Virus record (IMG/VR): IMGVR_UViG_3300012155_000058
Span: 1-5,842 of that record
Length of the DNA stretch: 5,842 nucleotides
Source: a virus
Taxonomy: Duplodnaviria; Heunggongvirae; Uroviricota; Caudoviricetes
Reading direction: 5' to 3' (one strand)
The notes beneath the pieces are model-generated. The model worked only from the letters and a program-made list of their open reading frames with translations, did no database searches and was not told where the DNA came from. Both the position numbers and the translations under genes were made by a program. Positions 1 through 5,842 of the stretch are shown one piece after another. Each line of letters begins with the position of its first letter. Position 1 is the first letter of the stretch.

Positions 1-56
1 TGCCCTATGGCTGGCAGTGAGACATCGCCACTAAATTGAATCATTTTTTGTTGCAT
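1..56 (-). CDS. 5' end of an unidentified gene leaving the window at the left edge (first ~18 codons, MQQKMIQFSGDVSLPAIG...)
   Basis: Minus-strand ATG at 56-54 preceded by GGAGG (complement of 62-66) with 5-nt spacer; frame stays open to position 1. Too short to assess coding properties or product. Confidence 0.3.
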   Translation of the reverse strand, partial: MQQKMIQFSGDVSLPAIG

Positions 57-95
57 TGTTTCCTCCCAGGTATTGCACCACCGTAATGCAAAACA

Positions 96-114
96 GGGCG
101 TGACGCCCTTTTTA
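96..114. terminator. GC hairpin GGGCG-tga-CGCCC followed by TTTTTA; intrinsic-terminator-like element of uncertain assignment
   Basis: Perfect 5-bp GC stem 96-100/104-108, 3-nt loop, T-run 109-113 on plus strand; A-rich run immediately upstream makes it weakly bidirectional. It lies in a divergent intergenic region, so what it terminates is unclear. Confidence 0.3.
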
Positions 115-263
115 TTGGTGCGCAACATATTGATTTTAAATACCTTTATTTTTTAGTGTCCACAATTTGCCCCATTCTAAGCACGACTGGAATCAACTAT
201 TTTTATCTAAAAAAAATGGCTATGCCCGCCTCTACGTCTAATAACTTAATCCAACCTAATGAT

Positions 264-272
264 TGTTATAAT
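264..272 (+). promoter_or_regulatory. Candidate sigma70 extended -10 element (TGtTATAAT) for the DUF4177/YidD-like operon
   Basis: TGTTATAAT at 264-272 matches the TGnTATAAT extended -10 consensus; sits about 70 nt upstream of the ATG at 342 in an AT-rich leader. No good -35 hexamer, consistent with an extended -10 promoter. Prediction by eye only. Confidence 0.3.
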
Positions 273-341
273 TATTTATTGAAATATCATTCCCCTAGTT
301 TACTATTTAAACTCGTTTAATTACAAAAAGGAGTTTAATAC

Positions 342-578
342 ATGTACACCTATAAGATGATACAAGTACCGCCCAATATCTCAGTTAAAGCACGTGACAA
401 CAAAGCAGGAATAGCAGCAGCTTACCTTCAAGACGTGGTAAACGAACAAGCCGCCAACGGCTGGGAGTTTCAGCGGATAGACACTATTGGGATTGAAGAA
501 AAGCCAGGGTGTTTCGGTGGCAGCAAGACAAACTTTACTCAGTACTACGTTATCACTTTTAGAAAAGAAGTGGATTAA
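342..578 (+). CDS. Small DUF4177-like protein (78 aa), function unknown
   Basis: ATG at 342 with AAGGAG at 327-332 (9-nt spacer). Protein begins MYTYKMIQVP, has a central NGWEF and ends YYVITFRKE, which matches my recollection of the DUF4177 pattern. Stop TAA 576-578 overlaps the next start. Confidence 0.7.
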   Translation: MYTYKMIQVPPNISVKARDNKAGIAAAYLQDVVNEQAANGWEFQRIDTIGIEEKPGCFGGSKTNFTQYYVITFRKEVD

Positions 579-793
579 TGTTAAAAGTCTTGAGTATTCG
601 CCTTGTGTTGTTCTACCGAGCACATGCGCCAATGAATATTCGTAACAGATGTCGTCACACCCCATCTTGTTCAAAATACACACTGATTGCATTAAAGCGT
701 TTTGGATTCGTAAAGGGGTGGAAACTAGGTTTAAAGCGGATTTATCGTTGCCGTCCACCGAATGGCGGTATTGACTACCCGCCACACAAGTAA
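578..793 (+). CDS. yidD: YidD-family protein (putative membrane protein insertion efficiency factor paralogue, 71 aa)
   Basis: Clear similarity to E. coli YidD recalled from memory: CRHTPSCSKYTLIALKRFGFVKGWKLGLKRIYRCRPPNGGIDYPP versus [46 protein letters not shown]. Start ATG 578-580 overlaps upstream stop (TAATG). Symbol denotes family membership, not orthology to the rnpA-linked yidD. Confidence 0.85.
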   Translation: MLKVLSIRLVLFYRAHAPMNIRNRCRHTPSCSKYTLIALKRFGFVKGWKLGLKRIYRCRPPNGGIDYPPHK

Positions 794-800
794 TGCCTAA

Positions 801-827
801 GGCCGCCATAGTCGACGGCCTTTCTCA
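801..827 (+). terminator. Possible intrinsic terminator of the DUF4177/YidD-like operon
   Basis: AGGCCG (801-806) / CGGCCT (817-822) 6-bp stem with 10-nt loop, 8 nt after the TAA at 791-793; trailing T-tract is weak (TTCTC). Confidence 0.3.
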
Positions 828-971
828 AGACCAAAGCGTAAATTTCAGTTTCATATTTAACTAACTATATGTTTTTATTGTAATTTTTAAAATCTCTCAA
901 GCATTCCCTCACCCTCAAGCCTTCACGTAAAATAATTTTTTCTTTTATTTTCAATGTAATAAAAACAGGCC

Positions 972-997
972 GATCACATTCGTGATCTTTCTGTTTT
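972..997 (+). terminator. Hairpin GATCAC-attc-GTGATC followed by TTTCTGTTTT; weak terminator-like element
   Basis: 6-bp perfect stem 972-977/982-987 and T-rich tail 988-997. Stem is short and not GC-rich, so low confidence. Confidence 0.2.
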
Positions 998-1001
998 CAA
1001 T

Positions 1002-1105
1002 TAACTGAAAAAGCACGTAATTTTTTCAGTTCCGCAGATCCTTTTTAGATCCTTGCTGCGCGGGCTTTTGCGGCCCTTTATTGCAATATCCAGAACTGAA
1101 AAAAC
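1002..1105. repeat. Three copies of a 10-12 bp motif AACTGAAAAA(A): direct at 1002-1011 and 1094-1105, inverted at 1021-1032
   Basis: TTTTTTCAGTTC (1021-1032) is the exact reverse complement of GAACTGAAAAAA (1094-1105), flanking about 61 bp. AACTGAAAAA at 1002-1011 also pairs with 1022-1031 around a 9-nt loop. Read directly from the sequence. Confidence 0.6.
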
Positions 1106-1257
1106 TTTAACCACGCACAAGCGGCGGGCGTGCGGGTGAGCGCGGTTTTCGTCCCGCTGGCGTTCCGGTGTTCAGATTTTGACCGCGCGCCGTGTATCGA
1201 GCACCGCCAGACCTGCAGGACCGCCATAAATGACCGTGTTTGCCGGAATGAGGACGT

Positions 1258-1279
1258 AAAAAAGCCCGCGCAGGCGGGC
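1258..1279 (-). terminator. Rho-independent terminator of the minus-strand operon
   Basis: On the minus strand: GCCCGC-ctgc-GCGGGC (perfect 6-bp GC stem, 4-nt loop; plus coordinates 1264-1279) followed by TTTTTT (complement of 1258-1263), starting 12 nt downstream of the gene E stop at 1292-1294. Confidence 0.6.
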
Positions 1280-1291
1280 AATGAGAAGGGA

Positions 1292-2938
1292 TTAGCGTTC
1301 TATGATGGGGGATAGCTGCGCATGTAGCGTTGCAGCATTGACAGATTCAGCCGTAAACAATGCGGCGGTTGTAGGTGGGCTACTGGGGCCGCACTGGCAG
1401 TTATGGATGTGCGCAGCGTCAGCCGCTGCTAGCCGTTGAACAACCATCATCAGGTTATCCAACAGCACAAAAATATTTATTGCGTCCGTGCCGGTCCAAC
1501 TCTTTCCGGCTTCAAAATGCTGCAATTCTTTAGCCACGCTACGCCGCAGCTTGCCGACGACTTCAACCAACTGCCCGCCGACAGCGTGCCGGTGATCTCC
1601 TCCTGCTCCGGTGTCAATATCACCTGCAGTCATCTGCTCAATAGCGCCCAGGGTATGCAGGATATGCGACCCGCCAACCTGTAACACATCATCACCCGTT
1701 ACGCTGGCGCGACGCTCCGCGACGTCCGTCTGTTCTTCATCCACCGTCAACTTTCGCACCCGCGCAACTTCGGTCAGTGCCTGATCGGTTTCGCGGCTGA
1801 CATCGCCGCGACTGTTTGTCTTATGCAGAACGCCCGCGCGCGACTGCTGCACCTGCTCACCCGCAGCAACAGCAGGCAGCGTCAACCCCTGCGCCATTAC
1901 CTGGCGGATGTGTGGGCGGTCCGGGCGTGCCTCACTGAATCCCAGTTCGACCAGTGTTCCCGGCGCTGGGTACTGCATCAAGCCGCTATCGCTTCCGCCA
2001 AACCCAACCGGCAACGGCACAGCCTGATAAACAGGGACCGTTTGATCTGGTTTCCCGTCTTCATCAAGTAACTGAACATTGACGGCAAAACGCGGACGGA
2101 ATGGATCTGATATGTCGCTATGGCCGGTCGTGTCGCTGATAGCCTCAACGCGGCCAATTTTTGGCAGGTGTAAACCTGCGGCCAGTTCCGGAAACTCCTT
2201 TTCAGCCTGGCGGCGGAATTGCGATTTTTGCGCCTCGCGGCCTTTGCTGTCTGTTACTGCCCATTTGACTGACATCTGGTCATCAGTCAGATCGATACGC
2301 TTAACCCGCTGGCCGTTAACGACAGCGCCAGGCCGCAGTGACGGCACGCACACGATCCGCATAGTGTCGCCGCCAGTCTGCTGATCAGAAAATCCGGGCG
2401 GTATCTCAACGGGCAATGACGGCCATCGGGATTCCTGCCAACTACCAACAAACACAACACCTTCGGGCAACTGCTGCCAGATATAATCCGGGATAGAAAA
2501 AGCGCGCCCCAGGTTGTTTAGCAACTGATAGCCGCTGCCTGAATGGGTAAAGTTAGGGATCGGCGTATCGGTGTATTTCTGCCCGTCTGGCAGCGCAAAC
2601 GCCAGCCCGCACTGTTCAGTAACCCAGTTACAGACATCCCGTAATGTTGGGTGCTGTATTGAACAGGGCATAGGGCGCGCCAGTATTCCCGTTAATTCAC
2701 GCACCAGGATACGCTGCCAGCCCTTTTCCGCCTGCTGACTACGCTCAACAATACCAGTGAACCAGCGCAGCATTTTTCCGGAATACCCCAGATCCAGCGC
2801 GACCATTTTTCCCTGTAAGTTTTCATCACCGGGGACCGTGACAAAACCCAACCCAGCGCCGGACAACTCCAGCGCCAGATGTACATTAACCGGCGTTACC
2901 GTCTGCGAACCGATATAAAAACGGCTTGTTATCTTCAT
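1292..2938 (-). CDS. Gene E: hypothetical protein, 548 aa, no recognisable domain; last gene of the operon
   Basis: Long ORF; ATG 2938-2936 overlaps gene D stop (ATGA); followed by the terminator at 1258-1279. No Walker A, no reverse-transcriptase YxDD, no obvious transmembrane segments. Confidence 0.8.
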   Translation of the reverse strand: MKITSRFYIGSQTVTPVNVHLALELSGAGLGFVTVPGDENLQGKMVALDLGYSGKMLRWFTGIVERSQQAEKGWQRILVRELTGILARPMPCSIQHPTLRDVCNWVTEQCGLAFALPDGQKYTDTPIPNFTHSGSGYQLLNNLGRAFSIPDYIWQQLPEGVVFVGSWQESRWPSLPVEIPPGFSDQQTGGDTMRIVCVPSLRPGAVVNGQRVKRIDLTDDQMSVKWAVTDSKGREAQKSQFRRQAEKEFPELAAGLHLPKIGRVEAISDTTGHSDISDPFRPRFAVNVQLLDEDGKPDQTVPVYQAVPLPVGFGGSDSGLMQYPAPGTLVELGFSEARPDRPHIRQVMAQGLTLPAVAAGEQVQQSRAGVLHKTNSRGDVSRETDQALTEVARVRKLTVDEEQTDVAERRASVTGDDVLQVGGSHILHTLGAIEQMTAGDIDTGAGGDHRHAVGGQLVEVVGKLRRSVAKELQHFEAGKSWTGTDAINIFVLLDNLMMVVQRLAAADAAHIHNCQCGPSSPPTTAALFTAESVNAATLHAQLSPIIER

Positions 2939-3570
2939 TTGTCTTTGTCCGTTTTGACAGCTGATCCGGCCGTACCGTTTGACGTCGTATCCGCTTTTGA
3001 TTCAGACGGCGACGGGGCCAGCCAATCATCAATTTTTTTCCAGAATTTATCTGATGACGACATTTCAGTGTCTGGCGGTGTATTTTCCCCAGAAGATGCA
3101 CCCGGCGTCGTAATACCTGGCGTTGTCTGCGAAACAACCCCGCCCAGTTTTGAAAATACGTTGGCCTCTTTTTTCTCCGGCACACTGCTGTACTCCCGCA
3201 GAGTGAACGACACGTTCCACGCCCGCAGTGAATCCGATTCCGGCGCGCTCAGACGCCCGGTGAATGTCGCCTGGCGCATGTTGATCGCCGTGGCGGTGAG
3301 ATTAGAAACGCGGTAAACCGTCTGCTTTCCGCCCTCGTCCACCCCTTCCGCCAGTTCAAAAATACGCGTAAGAAATTCAACATTACGAAACGGGATCACG
3401 CCGCTGACGTTTAATTCCTTTGCTTTTATCCCGCCCTCACTTTTCTGCGTTCCCGACGTCTGGCCAGACTGATCTTTGTCTTTGAACGGCAAAACAGCCT
3501 CCACTTTCAGATTCAGCATTTTTACCGTTTCGCCGTTCAGCGTTAAAATTACTGGGTGTCTCGTGCTCAT
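2935..3570 (-). CDS. Gene D: hypothetical protein, 211 aa, with a low-complexity S/T/P/G/K/D-rich C-terminal tail
   Basis: ATG 3570-3568 overlaps gene C stop (ATGA) and is preceded by GAAGGG about 6 nt upstream. An N-terminal region of about 130 aa of ordinary composition is followed by a C-terminal third of compositionally biased sequence. Confidence 0.75.
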   Translation of the reverse strand: MSTRHPVILTLNGETVKMLNLKVEAVLPFKDKDQSGQTSGTQKSEGGIKAKELNVSGVIPFRNVEFLTRIFELAEGVDEGGKQTVYRVSNLTATAINMRQATFTGRLSAPESDSLRAWNVSFTLREYSSVPEKKEANVFSKLGGVVSQTTPGITTPGASSGENTPPDTEMSSSDKFWKKIDDWLAPSPSESKADTTSNGTAGSAVKTDKDK

Positions 3571-4436
3571 ATGCAGCCCTTCAAAAACGACAGATCCGCG
3601 CCAGTGAACAGCACGACAGCAGTAAAAATAAAAGAATGGCCGGGCGGGCTACTGGATTCCAGCGCAGACGCCAGTGACGCACCGCCACCGCTTCCCTTCC
3701 AGGACCAGACCTGCGCGGCGGTTTCGTTCAGCTTGTCAAAGTCACCAGCCAGATCAGAAACAGCCTTTTCACGCAGCTTTACCAGTTCCGCCAATGTATC
3801 GACCGGCGCGCGGGTTTTATGTGCGGCCAGCATCGCCATTTCTGACAACAGCAGGCGGCGCGATTCACGGTGATTTTTTTCGATCAGGTCGCCAGACTCC
3901 GGCCACGCCGGATAGGTCAGCGCGCCGGGGCGTTGCATTTTCTGGGATTCCTTGCCAGCGTGAGCGCGGGCGGTGTTCAGTGCCTGCGTAAATCCGGGGG
4001 CGGGCAAGGTGTCACAGACTTTTGTCAGCTTGCTAATGAAGTCCCCAATCTGACCAGCGCAAACAAGTAAACAAACGGCGTCACCGCCTGCGCCCATTCT
4101 CAGATCTGCACCATCGCGCAATTTTTCGGCCAGCCGTTTGACGGCGTTCGGCGGGCTAAGATAAGTGCCGCTTTCTTCCTCCTTACCCGCGCCAAACGTC
4201 CAGTTATGAACGGCGATTTGCTGCCCGTTCGTTGTCAGTTTATCCAGTTCGACGCGCAGATCGGCAACCTGATCCGCCTGCCCCGCCAATTCTGGCTGCG
4301 GCCACTGCGCCCGCGATTCCAGCGCGCGCAATGCGTTAATGCCAGGGGATGACAGCGACGACAACGCACCGTTTAACGTGTCATGCGGCGTTTTCACTTC
4401 ATCCGGCAGTTTTAACTGTCCATTACTCCACGCCAT
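3567..4436 (-). CDS. Gene C: hypothetical protein, ~289 aa, helix-rich composition with a short hydrophobic C-terminal segment
   Basis: ORF in track is 3567-4529, but the best start is ATG 4436-4434 (MAWSNGQLKLPDEV...) preceded by GGGAGCGGGG. This gives a 25-nt overlap with gene B. An alternative ATG 18 nt upstream cannot be excluded. C-terminus FIFTAVVLFTGA is hydrophobic. Confidence 0.7.
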   Translation of the reverse strand: MAWSNGQLKLPDEVKTPHDTLNGALSSLSSPGINALRALESRAQWPQPELAGQADQVADLRVELDKLTTNGQQIAVHNWTFGAGKEEESGTYLSPPNAVKRLAEKLRDGADLRMGAGGDAVCLLVCAGQIGDFISKLTKVCDTLPAPGFTQALNTARAHAGKESQKMQRPGALTYPAWPESGDLIEKNHRESRRLLLSEMAMLAAHKTRAPVDTLAELVKLREKAVSDLAGDFDKLNETAAQVWSWKGSGGGASLASALESSSPPGHSFIFTAVVLFTGADLSFLKGCI

Positions 4437-4900
4437 GAATAACCCCGCTCCCATTCGCTGGAAACCAGCGCGTGTAACTGGCCGGGCGAATAACGCCAGG
4501 CATCCCGTAACTGCATAAATTCGGCACAAAACTCGCTACAAAACCACTTTTCAGGATTCCCACGGCAAAACAGCAAAAAGCCGATAACCCCGGCGATGTC
4601 GTATTTTTTCCCCGCGTACAGGCGGTAAAAACTGGCGATTTCCTGCGGGCTGGCGCTGATTTCGATCAAGTCCCATTTGTCAGAGGGTAAAGGCATTGTT
4701 TTAGCCCTGACCCCGCCATCACGGAACGATGACGAATAGCAGGTAAAATCCGTGCCGACGTCGTAGCACTGCGGCCCCACGGCGATTTCACAATGTGAAT
4801 ACGGACTGCGGGTAACAAGGCGTGTCACCCAGTCCGCCAGGCTGGCTAGTCCGTTGTGATCGCTGCGGCCACGATAAAACGCAATAAACACCGCGTTCAT
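4412..4900 (-). CDS. Gene B: putative permuted papain-like (NlpC/P60 superfamily, YaeF/YiiX C92-like) hydrolase, ~162 aa
   Basis: ATG 4900-4898 overlaps gene A stop (ATGA); a GTG at 4909 is an alternative start. Motif order is a histidine motif PYSHCEIAV followed by a C-terminal cysteine motif KWFCSEFCAEF, resembling the YSH and YCSE motifs of the circularly permuted YaeF/YiiX family. Assignment is by eye and needs profile confirmation. Confidence 0.7.
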   Translation of the reverse strand: MNAVFIAFYRGRSDHNGLASLADWVTRLVTRSPYSHCEIAVGPQCYDVGTDFTCYSSSFRDGGVRAKTMPLPSDKWDLIEISASPQEIASFYRLYAGKKYDIAGVIGFLLFCRGNPEKWFCSEFCAEFMQLRDAWRYSPGQLHALVSSEWERGYSWRGVMDS

Positions 4901-5499
4901 GGTTGCCACCCCAGGGACCAGTCGTAAGCCTCAACGGCGGCAATATCGCCCAGGGCATCCACTGCCGCAATATGCGCCTGCGCAACGGCAAACAAACGCA
5001 TATCGTGTTCAATGGTCACAAACTCAAACTGTGCGGCGATTGCGTTGGTCAGTTCAATCAGCCCGTTATTTTTGGTTTGCCACATCAGACCGGGCGGAAC
5101 CGCGCCCGCCTGTCCCATTTTTGCCAGCGTCATCTGCTGAATGCGGCTGTTAGCGTCGCTATGGAAGCGATTCCCGTCGATCACGATGTAATCGGCGGTG
5201 ACGGCGTCCCTATGTGCTTTTATATCCTGTTCAACCTGCGCTTTAATCTGCTTCAGCGCGGCGGCAAATGCTGCCGCGTCATAAATCCATTTATCACCGT
5301 CCAGGCGATAATATTCGCCCGGTGGCGGCGTTGTTACGAGCTTTCCAGCAGCGGGATTTACCCAGCAATCACGATCGCGGTAACGCCACTGCACATCCGT
5401 TAATTGCATGACCGTTTCAGGCAGAACAATGTCAAACTGATCGGTGTCCAGCCATGCTAGGACCTTCATTGATTCAGAATCAAAATATACATATTTCAT
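4897..5499 (-). CDS. Gene A: hypothetical protein, 200 aa; possibly a tail-fibre assembly or chaperone-like accessory protein by position
   Basis: ATG 5499-5497 lies 3 nt after the stop of the glycine-rich gene, with GGTGA upstream. Position immediately after a fibre-like gene suggests a chaperone role. It lacks the NPEG...RRAD...GKWMFKDG signature of P2/Mu/lambda-type Tfa proteins, so the functional call is weak. Confidence 0.75.
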   Translation of the reverse strand: MKYVYFDSESMKVLAWLDTDQFDIVLPETVMQLTDVQWRYRDRDCWVNPAAGKLVTTPPPGEYYRLDGDKWIYDAAAFAAALKQIKAQVEQDIKAHRDAVTADYIVIDGNRFHSDANSRIQQMTLAKMGQAGAVPPGLMWQTKNNGLIELTNAIAAQFEFVTIEHDMRLFAVAQAHIAAVDALGDIAAVEAYDWSLGWQP

Positions 5500-5502
5500 T
5501 GA

Positions 5503-5842
5503 TCACCATGACAATTTAACAAAACCCGGCGACCCATTGCCGCCCGGGAAACAGTTCGCACCAGAAGTCCCATAAGCACCAGCCGACCCGCCCGCACCGT
5601 ATCCGGTGCCATTGTGACTACCACCGATAACCCCGCAACCACCATCGCCATATACTGACGACGCTCCATTATTGCCCGCAGTGGCTTTTGTAGTACCAGT
5701 ACCGCCAGTAGTACCACCATAACCACCAGAACCACCGGGTGACGACACTCCCGAAAATGAAGACGCGCCGCCAGCAGTCCCCGAATTACCCTTGGTCATA
5801 TTGCCTGCTGATGACGTGACTACGGTTCCCCCTACCCCCCCA
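5503..5842 (-). CDS. 3' end of a gene encoding a glycine-rich C-terminal domain (tail-fibre or adhesin tip-like); 5' end lies beyond the window
   Basis: Reading frame is open from the window edge (5842) to the TGA at 5505-5503. Translation is Gly/Ser/Thr-rich with interspersed aromatics (GGSGGYGGTTGGTG, GTGYGAGGSAGAYG) and ends GFVKLSW. The internal Met at 5799 has only a weak SD, so a longer protein is more likely. Confidence 0.55.
   Translation of the reverse strand, partial: GGVGGTVVTSSAGNMTKGNSGTAGGASSFSGVSSPGGSGGYGGTTGGTGTTKATAGNNGASSVYGDGGCGVIGGSHNGTGYGAGGSAGAYGTSGANCFPGGNGSPGFVKLSW

Follow-up and report, generated by a model that had tools for sequence, protein, structure and literature searches.

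Genes C, D and E at the end of an HP1-type prophage probably encode the central part of a contractile-tail baseplate

We have analysed three adjacent genes, C, D and E, on a 5,842-nt stretch of DNA (positions 1 to 5,842 of the IMG/VR virus record IMGVR_UViG_3300012155_000058, hereafter called the window), which is the right end of a P2-family (Peduoviridae) prophage of the HP1 subgroup, inserted beside yeaE in Escherichia coli. The three genes make up an ordinary phage baseplate module, in which D belongs to a named family and C to a known, uncharacterised one. Together they probably encode the central part of a contractile-tail baseplate, with D acting as tube initiator, E as hub and spike, and C as a virion protein. 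An initial annotation of the window, made from the sequence alone, did not identify the genes as a baseplate module, though D already has a Pfam family (PF25759). The coordinates of all features are given in Table 1.

Gene D is a candidate tube initiator

Judged by their PHROG and Pfam matches (E from 1e-53 to 1e-60) and by hundreds of homologues, C and D are real genes. D is a member of PF25759 (HP1_ORF34 baseplate complex protein), which it matched with 180.6 bits (cut-off 27) and an E-value of 2.9e-53, residues 9-184 covering positions 3-175 of the 180 in the profile. It also matched phrog_1398, and PF25759 was carried by all 26 D homologues found. Some homologues carry other labels: in several phage records they are called 'adenine glycosylase', 'nucleoid DNA-binding protein' or 'DNA-binding protein' (for example at 6680-7225 in locus L003, 9371-9910 in L004, 7862-8398 in L005 and 3504-3977 in L095), and these DNA-related labels are almost certainly propagated errors.

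An AlphaFold2 model of D, built on 19 homologues, gave a beta-sandwich with a flanking helix, and 10-residue blocks over residues 11-30 and 51-130 averaged 77-94 in the predicted local distance difference test (pLDDT). The loop 36-48 was left unmodelled and coincides with the invariant motif DKDQSGQTSGT. The structural relatives of the model (scores in brackets) were the ripcord-1 protein gp38 of Pa193 (9.5), the centerpiece gp25 of Milano (9.2), the ripcord-2 protein gp39 of Pa193 (8.9), the tube initiator gp17 of Pam3 (8.6), the ripcord PA0626 of pyocin R2 (8.2) and protein N of Mu (7.5), and ordinary tube proteins and Hcp scored 6-8. The N-terminal domain of D is thus predicted to have the tail-tube fold, and the model supports, at the level of the fold, a role as tube initiator. 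D is read as an initiator rather than as the tube itself because the prophage has a separate major tube gene (Phage_HP1_Orf24) and because D lies directly upstream of the hub gene, in the manner of U and D in P2. It would be a functional counterpart of gpU and of the ripcord proteins known from R-type pyocins and Pakpunaviruses.

The part of D beyond this domain had initially been described as a long low-complexity tail. It is indeed flexible and largely disordered, with 70% of residues 136-211 being S, T, P, G, K, D or E (48% in residues 1-135) and with pLDDT values below 50 for residues 130-169 and 187-211, but it also contains a conserved predicted helix at residues 172-184. The pattern of this helix was conserved in an alignment of 63 distinct homologues, taken from 80 IMG/VR loci and several phages, where it reads for instance WFEKKVLKPVNEALG or FEKILQRVDDAIG; most of these proteins end just past it. 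The last 26 residues of D (SPSESKADTTSNGTAGSAVKTDKDK) were seen only in the closest relatives from E. coli, Salmonella and E. albertii, in which the length varies and insertions rich in Gly and Ser occur.

With regard to mechanism, the N-terminal domain of D would form a hexameric ring on the trimeric hub and nucleate the tube, whose protein polymerises around the tape measure. Contacts within the ring or towards the lumen may be made by the invariant loop. Thanks to the flexible linker, the C-terminal amphipathic helix could extend outwards and bind the wedge (gpJ/gpI-like triplex and sheath initiator), and core and wedge ring would thereby stay connected up to the moment of contraction. By analogy, the linker and helix of D may thus make a core-to-wedge link like that of the P2 gpU helix or the pyocin ripcord. 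The C-terminal helix of gpU contacts the gpJ/gpI triplex in P2, and the ripcord domain of pyocin R2 provides the same core-to-wedge link (bioRxiv 10.64898/2026.09.14.750843).

Gene E appears to be a fused hub and spike

A profile made from eight E homologues was compared with the PDB and matched a central spike protein (E = 5.7e-6), VgrG of type VI secretion (about 1e-3) and the beta-helix of T4 gp5 (1.5e-3); the E-values are weak to moderate. Pfam Phage_base_V was found in six of the eight E-family members. Residues 312-477 of E align with residues 413-581 of VgrG, which represent its OB-fold and beta-helix region, leaving about 300 N-terminal residues for a hub domain. As judged from these matches, E is a VgrG-like fusion of a hub (the gpD-like N-terminal half) and a central spike (a gpV/gp5-like OB fold and beta-helix). 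The homologues of gpD and gpV are reported to be fused in HP1 as well (PMC10612066, Table S1 footnote d).

Other arrangements of these genes were also observed. A sub-lineage of HP1-type phages, consisting of Canoevirus and seven relatives (loci L005/L087 and L088-L094), encodes the hub (about 229 aa) and the spike (about 232-254 aa) separately. Six of these eight phages continue with a conserved open reading frame (ORF) of 65 aa, and in six of them the alignment of the spike ORFs with E stops at about residue 434, the C-terminal part of E (about 114 aa, including the invariant H510 and H512) being replaced. In the Pseudomonas phage phi3 the E homologue (about 9690-11560 in locus L004) is annotated for its C-terminal part only and matches as two overlapping ORFs, suggesting a frameshift or a sequencing error.

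The gene order C-D-E is conserved

To our set of 80 IMG/VR loci found through the D family we added HP1, vB_YenM_324, phi3 and the E. coli locus, and the order C-D-E was kept in 83 of these 84 loci. This conservation, which shows the homologues to be syntenic with E, supports the initial view that C and D are co-translated and act with their neighbour E. Gene B, upstream of C, had been proposed as a further partner, and here the proposal did not hold: B was present in 3 of 85 loci and is missing from HP1. B is an accessory insert outside the conserved module. C remains adjacent to D in the window, where B has been inserted, and also in ACA1, despite a diversity-generating retroelement cassette between the fibre genes and C.

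The junctions show a similar division. Four-nucleotide ATGA overlaps are found between C and D (3567-3570) and between D and E (2935-2938), whereas B and C overlap by 25 nt (4412-4436) with no ATGA, so that C is not flanked by such overlaps on both sides as had been stated. A further ATGA overlap joins the tail-fibre assembly gene and B (4897-4900). According to the RefSeq annotation, 7 of about 19 junctions in the late operon have a 4-nt overlap, so that the feature is not peculiar to C and D. It should be emphasised that overlaps of this kind do not support a fixed stoichiometry, which had been read from them, since they are common across the operon and since the equivalents in P2 are present at six copies (gpU) and three copies (gpD), an initiator to hub ratio of 6:3 and not 1:1 (bioRxiv 10.64898/2026.09.14.750843).

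Gene C belongs to the HP1 orf33 family

C is a member of phrog_1677, a family of unknown function, with an E-value of 4.9e-60 and residues 3-286 matching positions 2-281 of the 287 in the profile. It is 32% identical to HP1 orf33 (tblastn, E = 2e-24) and also matches orf37 of K139, KP43 of Kappa and the 'structural protein' of the Yersinia phage vB_YenM_324. When 1.84 billion cluster representatives were searched exhaustively with HMMER, only 158 relatives of C were returned. They fall into two length classes, one of about 295 aa and one of about 235 aa, and the latter lacks the N-terminal 70 or so residues.

Searches outside this family were negative. C had no match in Pfam, NCBIfam or PADLOC; NCBIfam likewise gave none for B, D or E, and PADLOC none for B or D (E <= 0.1). 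A Pfam scan of 60 C homologues gave scattered coiled-coil noise only, the commonest hit being FlgN (4 of the 60), and a profile search of the PDB with 60 homologues gave coiled-coil noise at E >= 0.3. Single-sequence searches of the PDB with C, D and B produced no meaningful match. The best Foldseek match of the C model in the PDB had an E-value of 1.4, with template modelling scores of at most 0.18, and hhalign comparisons of the C family with P2 gpD, gpX and gpV gave probabilities of at most 0.3%. In the literature we found no functional study of HP1 orf33 or orf34, or of vB_YenM_324.

The AlphaFold2 model of C, based on an alignment of 60 relatives, had a pLDDT of 86.8 and a predicted template modelling score of 0.79. 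It consists of an alpha/beta core (strands 4-8, 71-77, 118-127, 241-250 and 271-279) into which a long helical hairpin, residues 186-238, is inserted. With about 53% helix and 16% strand, the model agrees with the initial description of C as helix-rich. Only one residue, L93, is invariant in the family, and the best-conserved stretch, VHPWxxGVGxxxxSGxYLSPxNA, lies just past strand 71-77. This conservation pattern speaks for a structural protein rather than for an enzyme.

The C-terminus of C, which reads ...HSFIFTAVVLFTGADLSFLKGCI, had been suggested to associate with a membrane. A hydrophobic run is indeed present, but it comprises 12 residues (269-280), and its best 19-residue Kyte-Doolittle mean of 1.53 is not above that of the internal strand 118-127. 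The run was modelled as the beta-strand 271-279, the 10-residue blocks over residues 261-289 averaging pLDDT 97, 97 and 94. The terminal strand is conserved throughout the family as 'TAAxLFxG' and is also aligned in gp46 of ACA1. By hydropathy and the model, neither a hydrophobic helix of about 18-20 residues or more nor an amphipathic membrane segment exposed at the terminus was found in C. According to the model, the hydrophobic C-terminus is a conserved, buried core beta-strand of a soluble domain and not a membrane segment.

C as a probable virion protein

The phage ACA1 has a truncated member of the C family, gp46, which hhalign aligned with residues 101-289 of C, including the terminal strand, at a probability of 97.3% (E = 2e-11). 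This protein was found in purified ACA1 virions by mass spectrometry, with 2 spectra and 6% coverage (PMC10612066, Table S2). Expressed as spectra per kDa, gp46 reached 0.09, compared with 0.08 for gpW, 0.05 for gpJ and 0.06 for gpV (PMC10612066, Table S2). The homologue in vB_YenM_324 is annotated as 'structural protein', a label behind which we found no paper. This modest evidence points to C as being probably a low-copy virion (baseplate) protein. It is most likely an accessory component of the baseplate, which we infer to sit with the core formed by D and E.

C is not present in every phage of this type. With the C profile, no homologue was detected in Canoevirus, for which the whole genome was searched, or in seven phages of Vibrio, Pseudoalteromonas and Salinivibrio, for which the search covered the fetched locus only; in all eight, hub and spike are encoded by separate genes. 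D follows directly after the long fibre (tail) gene in five of these phages, and in the other three only small genes unmatched by the C profile lie between the fibre gene and D. At least eight phages with split hub and spike thus have no detectable C, indicating that C is not universally required. ValB1MD-2, on the other hand, has a fused E together with C (E = 3.6e-94). A functional tie between C and the fused hub-spike was considered and set aside: the pattern may go back to one or two evolutionary events, and ACA1 is an exception, having kept its truncated C homologue with a split hub and spike, so that the correlation between C and the fusion may be purely phylogenetic. In phi3, a gap of about 900 bp without annotation lies upstream of the D gene (about 8460-9370 in locus L004), and an ORF overlapping it matches the C profile.

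Alternative readings of C and D

Several observations weigh against the assignment of the three genes to the central baseplate. To our knowledge no structure of an HP1-type baseplate exists in which C or D could be placed. For C, no relative with a known function turned up by structure or by sequence, no homologue was detected in the eight phages with split hub and spike, and its presence in virions is represented by 2 spectra from a distant, truncated relative. D, for its part, shows no link to the gpU family by sequence, having given an hhalign probability of 0.1% with P2 gpU and no match to PF06995 (Phage_P2_GpU) at E <= 0.1. A published HHpred comparison assigned ORF34 to gpU tentatively, at 15% identity, and flagged the assignment as 'uncertain' (PMC10612066, Table S1), and the D homologue of ACA1, gp47, was undetected in the virions by mass spectrometry (PMC10612066, Table S2).

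Among the alternatives, the one that fares best takes C as a non-structural assembly factor, which would assist the hub-spike/initiator core or the tail fibre as chaperone or scaffold and leave only traces of itself in the particles. The missing structural-protein fold would fit such a role, as would the single family-invariant residue, which is not enzyme-like, the eight related phages without C and the low count of 2 spectra in ACA1 virions (PMC10612066, Table S2). C also adjoins the tail-fibre assembly gene in the RefSeq annotation; in the window, however, B separates the two, and in ACA1 it is D with which C stays, across the retroelement cassette. Moreover, per kDa, gp46 was at least as abundant in spectra as the genuine baseplate proteins gpW, gpJ and gpV. 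We therefore regard an assembly factor as unlikely, and virion protein remains our preferred reading of C.

D could conceivably be another kind of tube-fold protein, such as one that forms a further ring similar to the tube, a distal-tail adaptor like Dit, or a terminator, the initiator then residing elsewhere, for instance in the N-terminus of E. Its fold is indeed shared by tube, Hcp, Dit, terminator-adjacent and initiator proteins, and the failure to detect its homologue in ACA1 virions (PMC10612066, Table S2) would be consistent with this. Yet the gene order is that of U and D in P2, genes are already assigned to the tube protein and to completion proteins of the gpR and gpS types, and E, with 548 aa, is not longer than gpD and gpV combined (387 + 211), all of which makes this reading quite improbable and favours D as the initiator.

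The initial picture of a membrane-associated C and a generic D with a disordered charged tail, both in fixed stoichiometry with B and E through ATGA overlaps, draws on the 12-residue hydrophobic run in C, the predicted disorder of D at 130-169 and 187-211 and the overlaps at C/D and D/E, but is very improbable, given that the run is too short for a bilayer-spanning helix, lies below the usual Kyte-Doolittle threshold and forms a high-confidence core strand in the model, that the tail of D holds a conserved helix, that the B/C junction has no ATGA and B is not conserved, and that initiator and hub of P2 occur at 6:3 (bioRxiv 10.64898/2026.09.14.750843).

The prophage and its late operon

Across its full length the window shares 99.9% identity with the E. 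coli strain 40EC chromosome. Among 5,426 complete E. coli genomes, 8 contain at least 80% of the window, and the remaining genomes match bases 1-117 only, which are the end of yeaE. The 46-kb neighbourhood in the E. coli chromosome is a complete HP1-type P2-family prophage with a head, tail and baseplate gene set. A megablast search of the whole window against the phage collection gave zero matches, and the element is known only as a prophage.

All phage genes in the window lie on the minus strand. The late genes of the prophage begin with the terminase, the P2-family capsid and the gpR/gpS-type completion proteins, followed by the DUF2586 sheath, the HP1-Orf24 tube, a holin and an M15 endolysin. 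Then come the tail chaperone, the tape measure (from the RefSeq annotation), DUF2590 (a gpW-type sheath initiator), Baseplate_J and Tail_P2_I, and finally the tail fibre, the DUF4376 fibre-assembly protein and four 'hypothetical' genes up to yeaE. The Pfam scan of the tail region, which took in ten tail genes, gave matches to P2_Phage_GpR, Phage_tail_S, DUF2586, Phage_HP1_Orf24, a tail assembly chaperone, DUF2590, Baseplate_J and Tail_P2_I; these fit gpR, gpS, sheath, tube, chaperone and gpW-, gpJ- and gpI-type components, respectively. Past the stop of E stands an intrinsic terminator with 6 G-C pairs and a T run, found in a terminator scan that gave 8 sites in the region compared with 1.1 expected. 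The terminator marks the end of the late tail operon, of which C, D and E are the last three genes.

Table 1. Features of the window discussed in the text, with their positions and the basis of each assignment
Feature	Position	Strand	Basis or remark
Intrinsic terminator hairpin, GCCCGC-CTGC-GCGGGC then TTTTTT	1264-1279	minus	13 nt past the stop of E
Gene E, 548 aa, HP1 orf35 family	1292-2938	minus	phrog_2258, E 5e-206
Gene D, 211 aa	2935-3570	minus	PF25759, phrog_1398
D aa 186-211, lineage-specific Ser/Thr/Lys/Asp tail	2938-3015	minus	Occupancy <0.5 past aa 186; pLDDT <50
D aa 170-185, conserved amphipathic helix SSDKFWKKIDDWLAPS, proposed docking helix	3016-3063	minus	Modelled as helix 172-184
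D aa 136-169, variable low-complexity flexible linker	3064-3165	minus	pLDDT <50, low column conservation, composition
D aa 1-135, predicted tail-tube-fold domain (candidate tube initiator), including the invariant loop DKDQSGQTSGT (aa 31-41)	3166-3570	minus	
Gene C, 289 aa, HP1 orf33 / PHROG 1677 family	3567-4436	minus	ORF and translation, phrog_1677 match
Codons of FIFTAVVLFTGA, C aa 269-280	3597-3632	minus	Predicted buried core beta-strand
Gene B, 162 aa, accessory insert between the tail-fibre assembly gene and C	4412-4900	minus	phrog_1128, N-terminal part only
Tail-fibre assembly protein (DUF4376), 200 aa, upstream of B	4897-5499	minus	PF14301, E 3.4e-12; RefSeq annotation
Tail fibre C-terminus	5503-5799	minus	Partial

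With regard to the neighbouring genes, the match of B is restricted to the N-terminal half of phrog_1128 ('enoyl-CoA hydratase/carnithine racemase-like', moron category), and no Pfam, NCBIfam, PADLOC or PDB match was obtained for it. Its Cys/His motifs (SHCE and FCSEFC) bear a possible resemblance to those of permuted papain-like amidases. The tail-fibre gene runs off the window (5503-5842, minus strand) and measures 2,010 nt in full in the genome. Its C-terminus in the window is very rich in Gly, Ser and Thr (GGSGGYGGTTGGTGTT...) and matches only the last 70 or so positions of the PHROG tail protein profile (E = 0.002).

Window positions 118-1000, which lie between yeaE and the terminator that follows E, have a G+C content of 39%, compared with about 55% in the phage genes. 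On the plus strand this stretch encodes a 78-aa protein (342-578) with a sub-threshold DUF4177 match (23.6 bits, cut-off 25) and a 71-aa YidD-family protein (578-793), annotated as yidD in RefSeq; the stop of the former gene and the start of the latter overlap by 1 nt. The stretch is restricted to a few genomes with the prophage and looks like cargo at the prophage end.

Discussion

The closest known counterpart of the C-D-E module is orf33-orf34-orf35 of HP1, where the three families recur in identical order and likewise close the late operon; equivalents are orf37-39 of K139, KP43-45 of Kappa, and genes of phiO18P, ESSI-2 and vB_YenM_324. Identity to the HP1 proteins is 32% over 77% of the length for C, 41% for D and 40% over the full length for E. 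The window differs from HP1 in the extra N-terminal segment of C (about 66 aa by tblastn), which is shared with the long-form class of about 295 aa, in the 26-aa C-terminal extension of D and in the accessory gene B inserted upstream of C.

P2 offers a more distant comparison with its gpU, gpD and gpV. The tube-fold protein gpU, like D, is encoded directly upstream of the hub gene, and the two probably occupy equivalent places in the machine; the 159 aa of gpU compare with about 135 aa for the core of D. Both proteins have a helix past the tube domain, that of D being placed on a disordered linker of about 35 residues. In contrast to P2, hub and spike are fused in E, the C-D-E genes follow the fibre genes whereas their P2 counterparts follow the tape measure, and no sequence similarity between D and gpU is detectable. 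The ripcord initiators (pyocin R2 PA0626, Pa193 gp38 and gp39, and also Pam3 gp17) share 10-16% sequence identity with D. Their C-terminal domain is sizeable and helical (PA0626 has 285 aa), whereas D has a linker and one short helix only.

A further difference from P2 concerns the LysM 'glue' protein gpX, for which no gene was found in the prophage by annotation, Pfam or phmmer. Searching the prophage with the P2 tail proteins by phmmer gave nothing, even for gpJ against its Baseplate_J counterpart (E = 3.1), and the failure to detect gpX by sequence is therefore uninformative when taken alone. When the Pfam scan, the RefSeq annotation, the E profile results and the published comparison with ACA1 are considered together, each baseplate protein of P2 other than gpX has a counterpart in HP1-type phages, which possess one additional virion protein, orf33. 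Very tentatively, C might then be a baseplate component of unseen fold that takes over the job done by LysM 'glue' proteins elsewhere (gpX in P2, PA0627 in R-type pyocins) or partners the fused hub-spike, linking the D/E core to the wedge ring. No LysM domain was found by Pfam in C or 60 family members, and hhalign of C with P2 gpX gave a probability of 0.2%. In Canoevirus, which has no C, no LysM protein is annotated in its place, and Pfam found none in six small or unassigned proteins. If this idea were true, C would be part of a distinct way in which a minimal contractile baseplate is held together and released.

A specialist would find none of the C-D-E results surprising. For annotation, three entries of an E. 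coli prophage that are labelled 'hypothetical protein' now become what is probably a coherent baseplate core, with D as the initiator, E as the hub-spike and C as the orf33-family member. The C family emerges as well folded, according to the model, with about 160 sequence clusters and a presence in most but not all HP1-type phages. The D model gives fold-level support to a gpU-like ORF34, an assignment still marked as uncertain in the literature, and the linker and helix of D are pointed to as the HP1-type counterpart of the gpU contact helix in P2 and of the pyocin ripcord.

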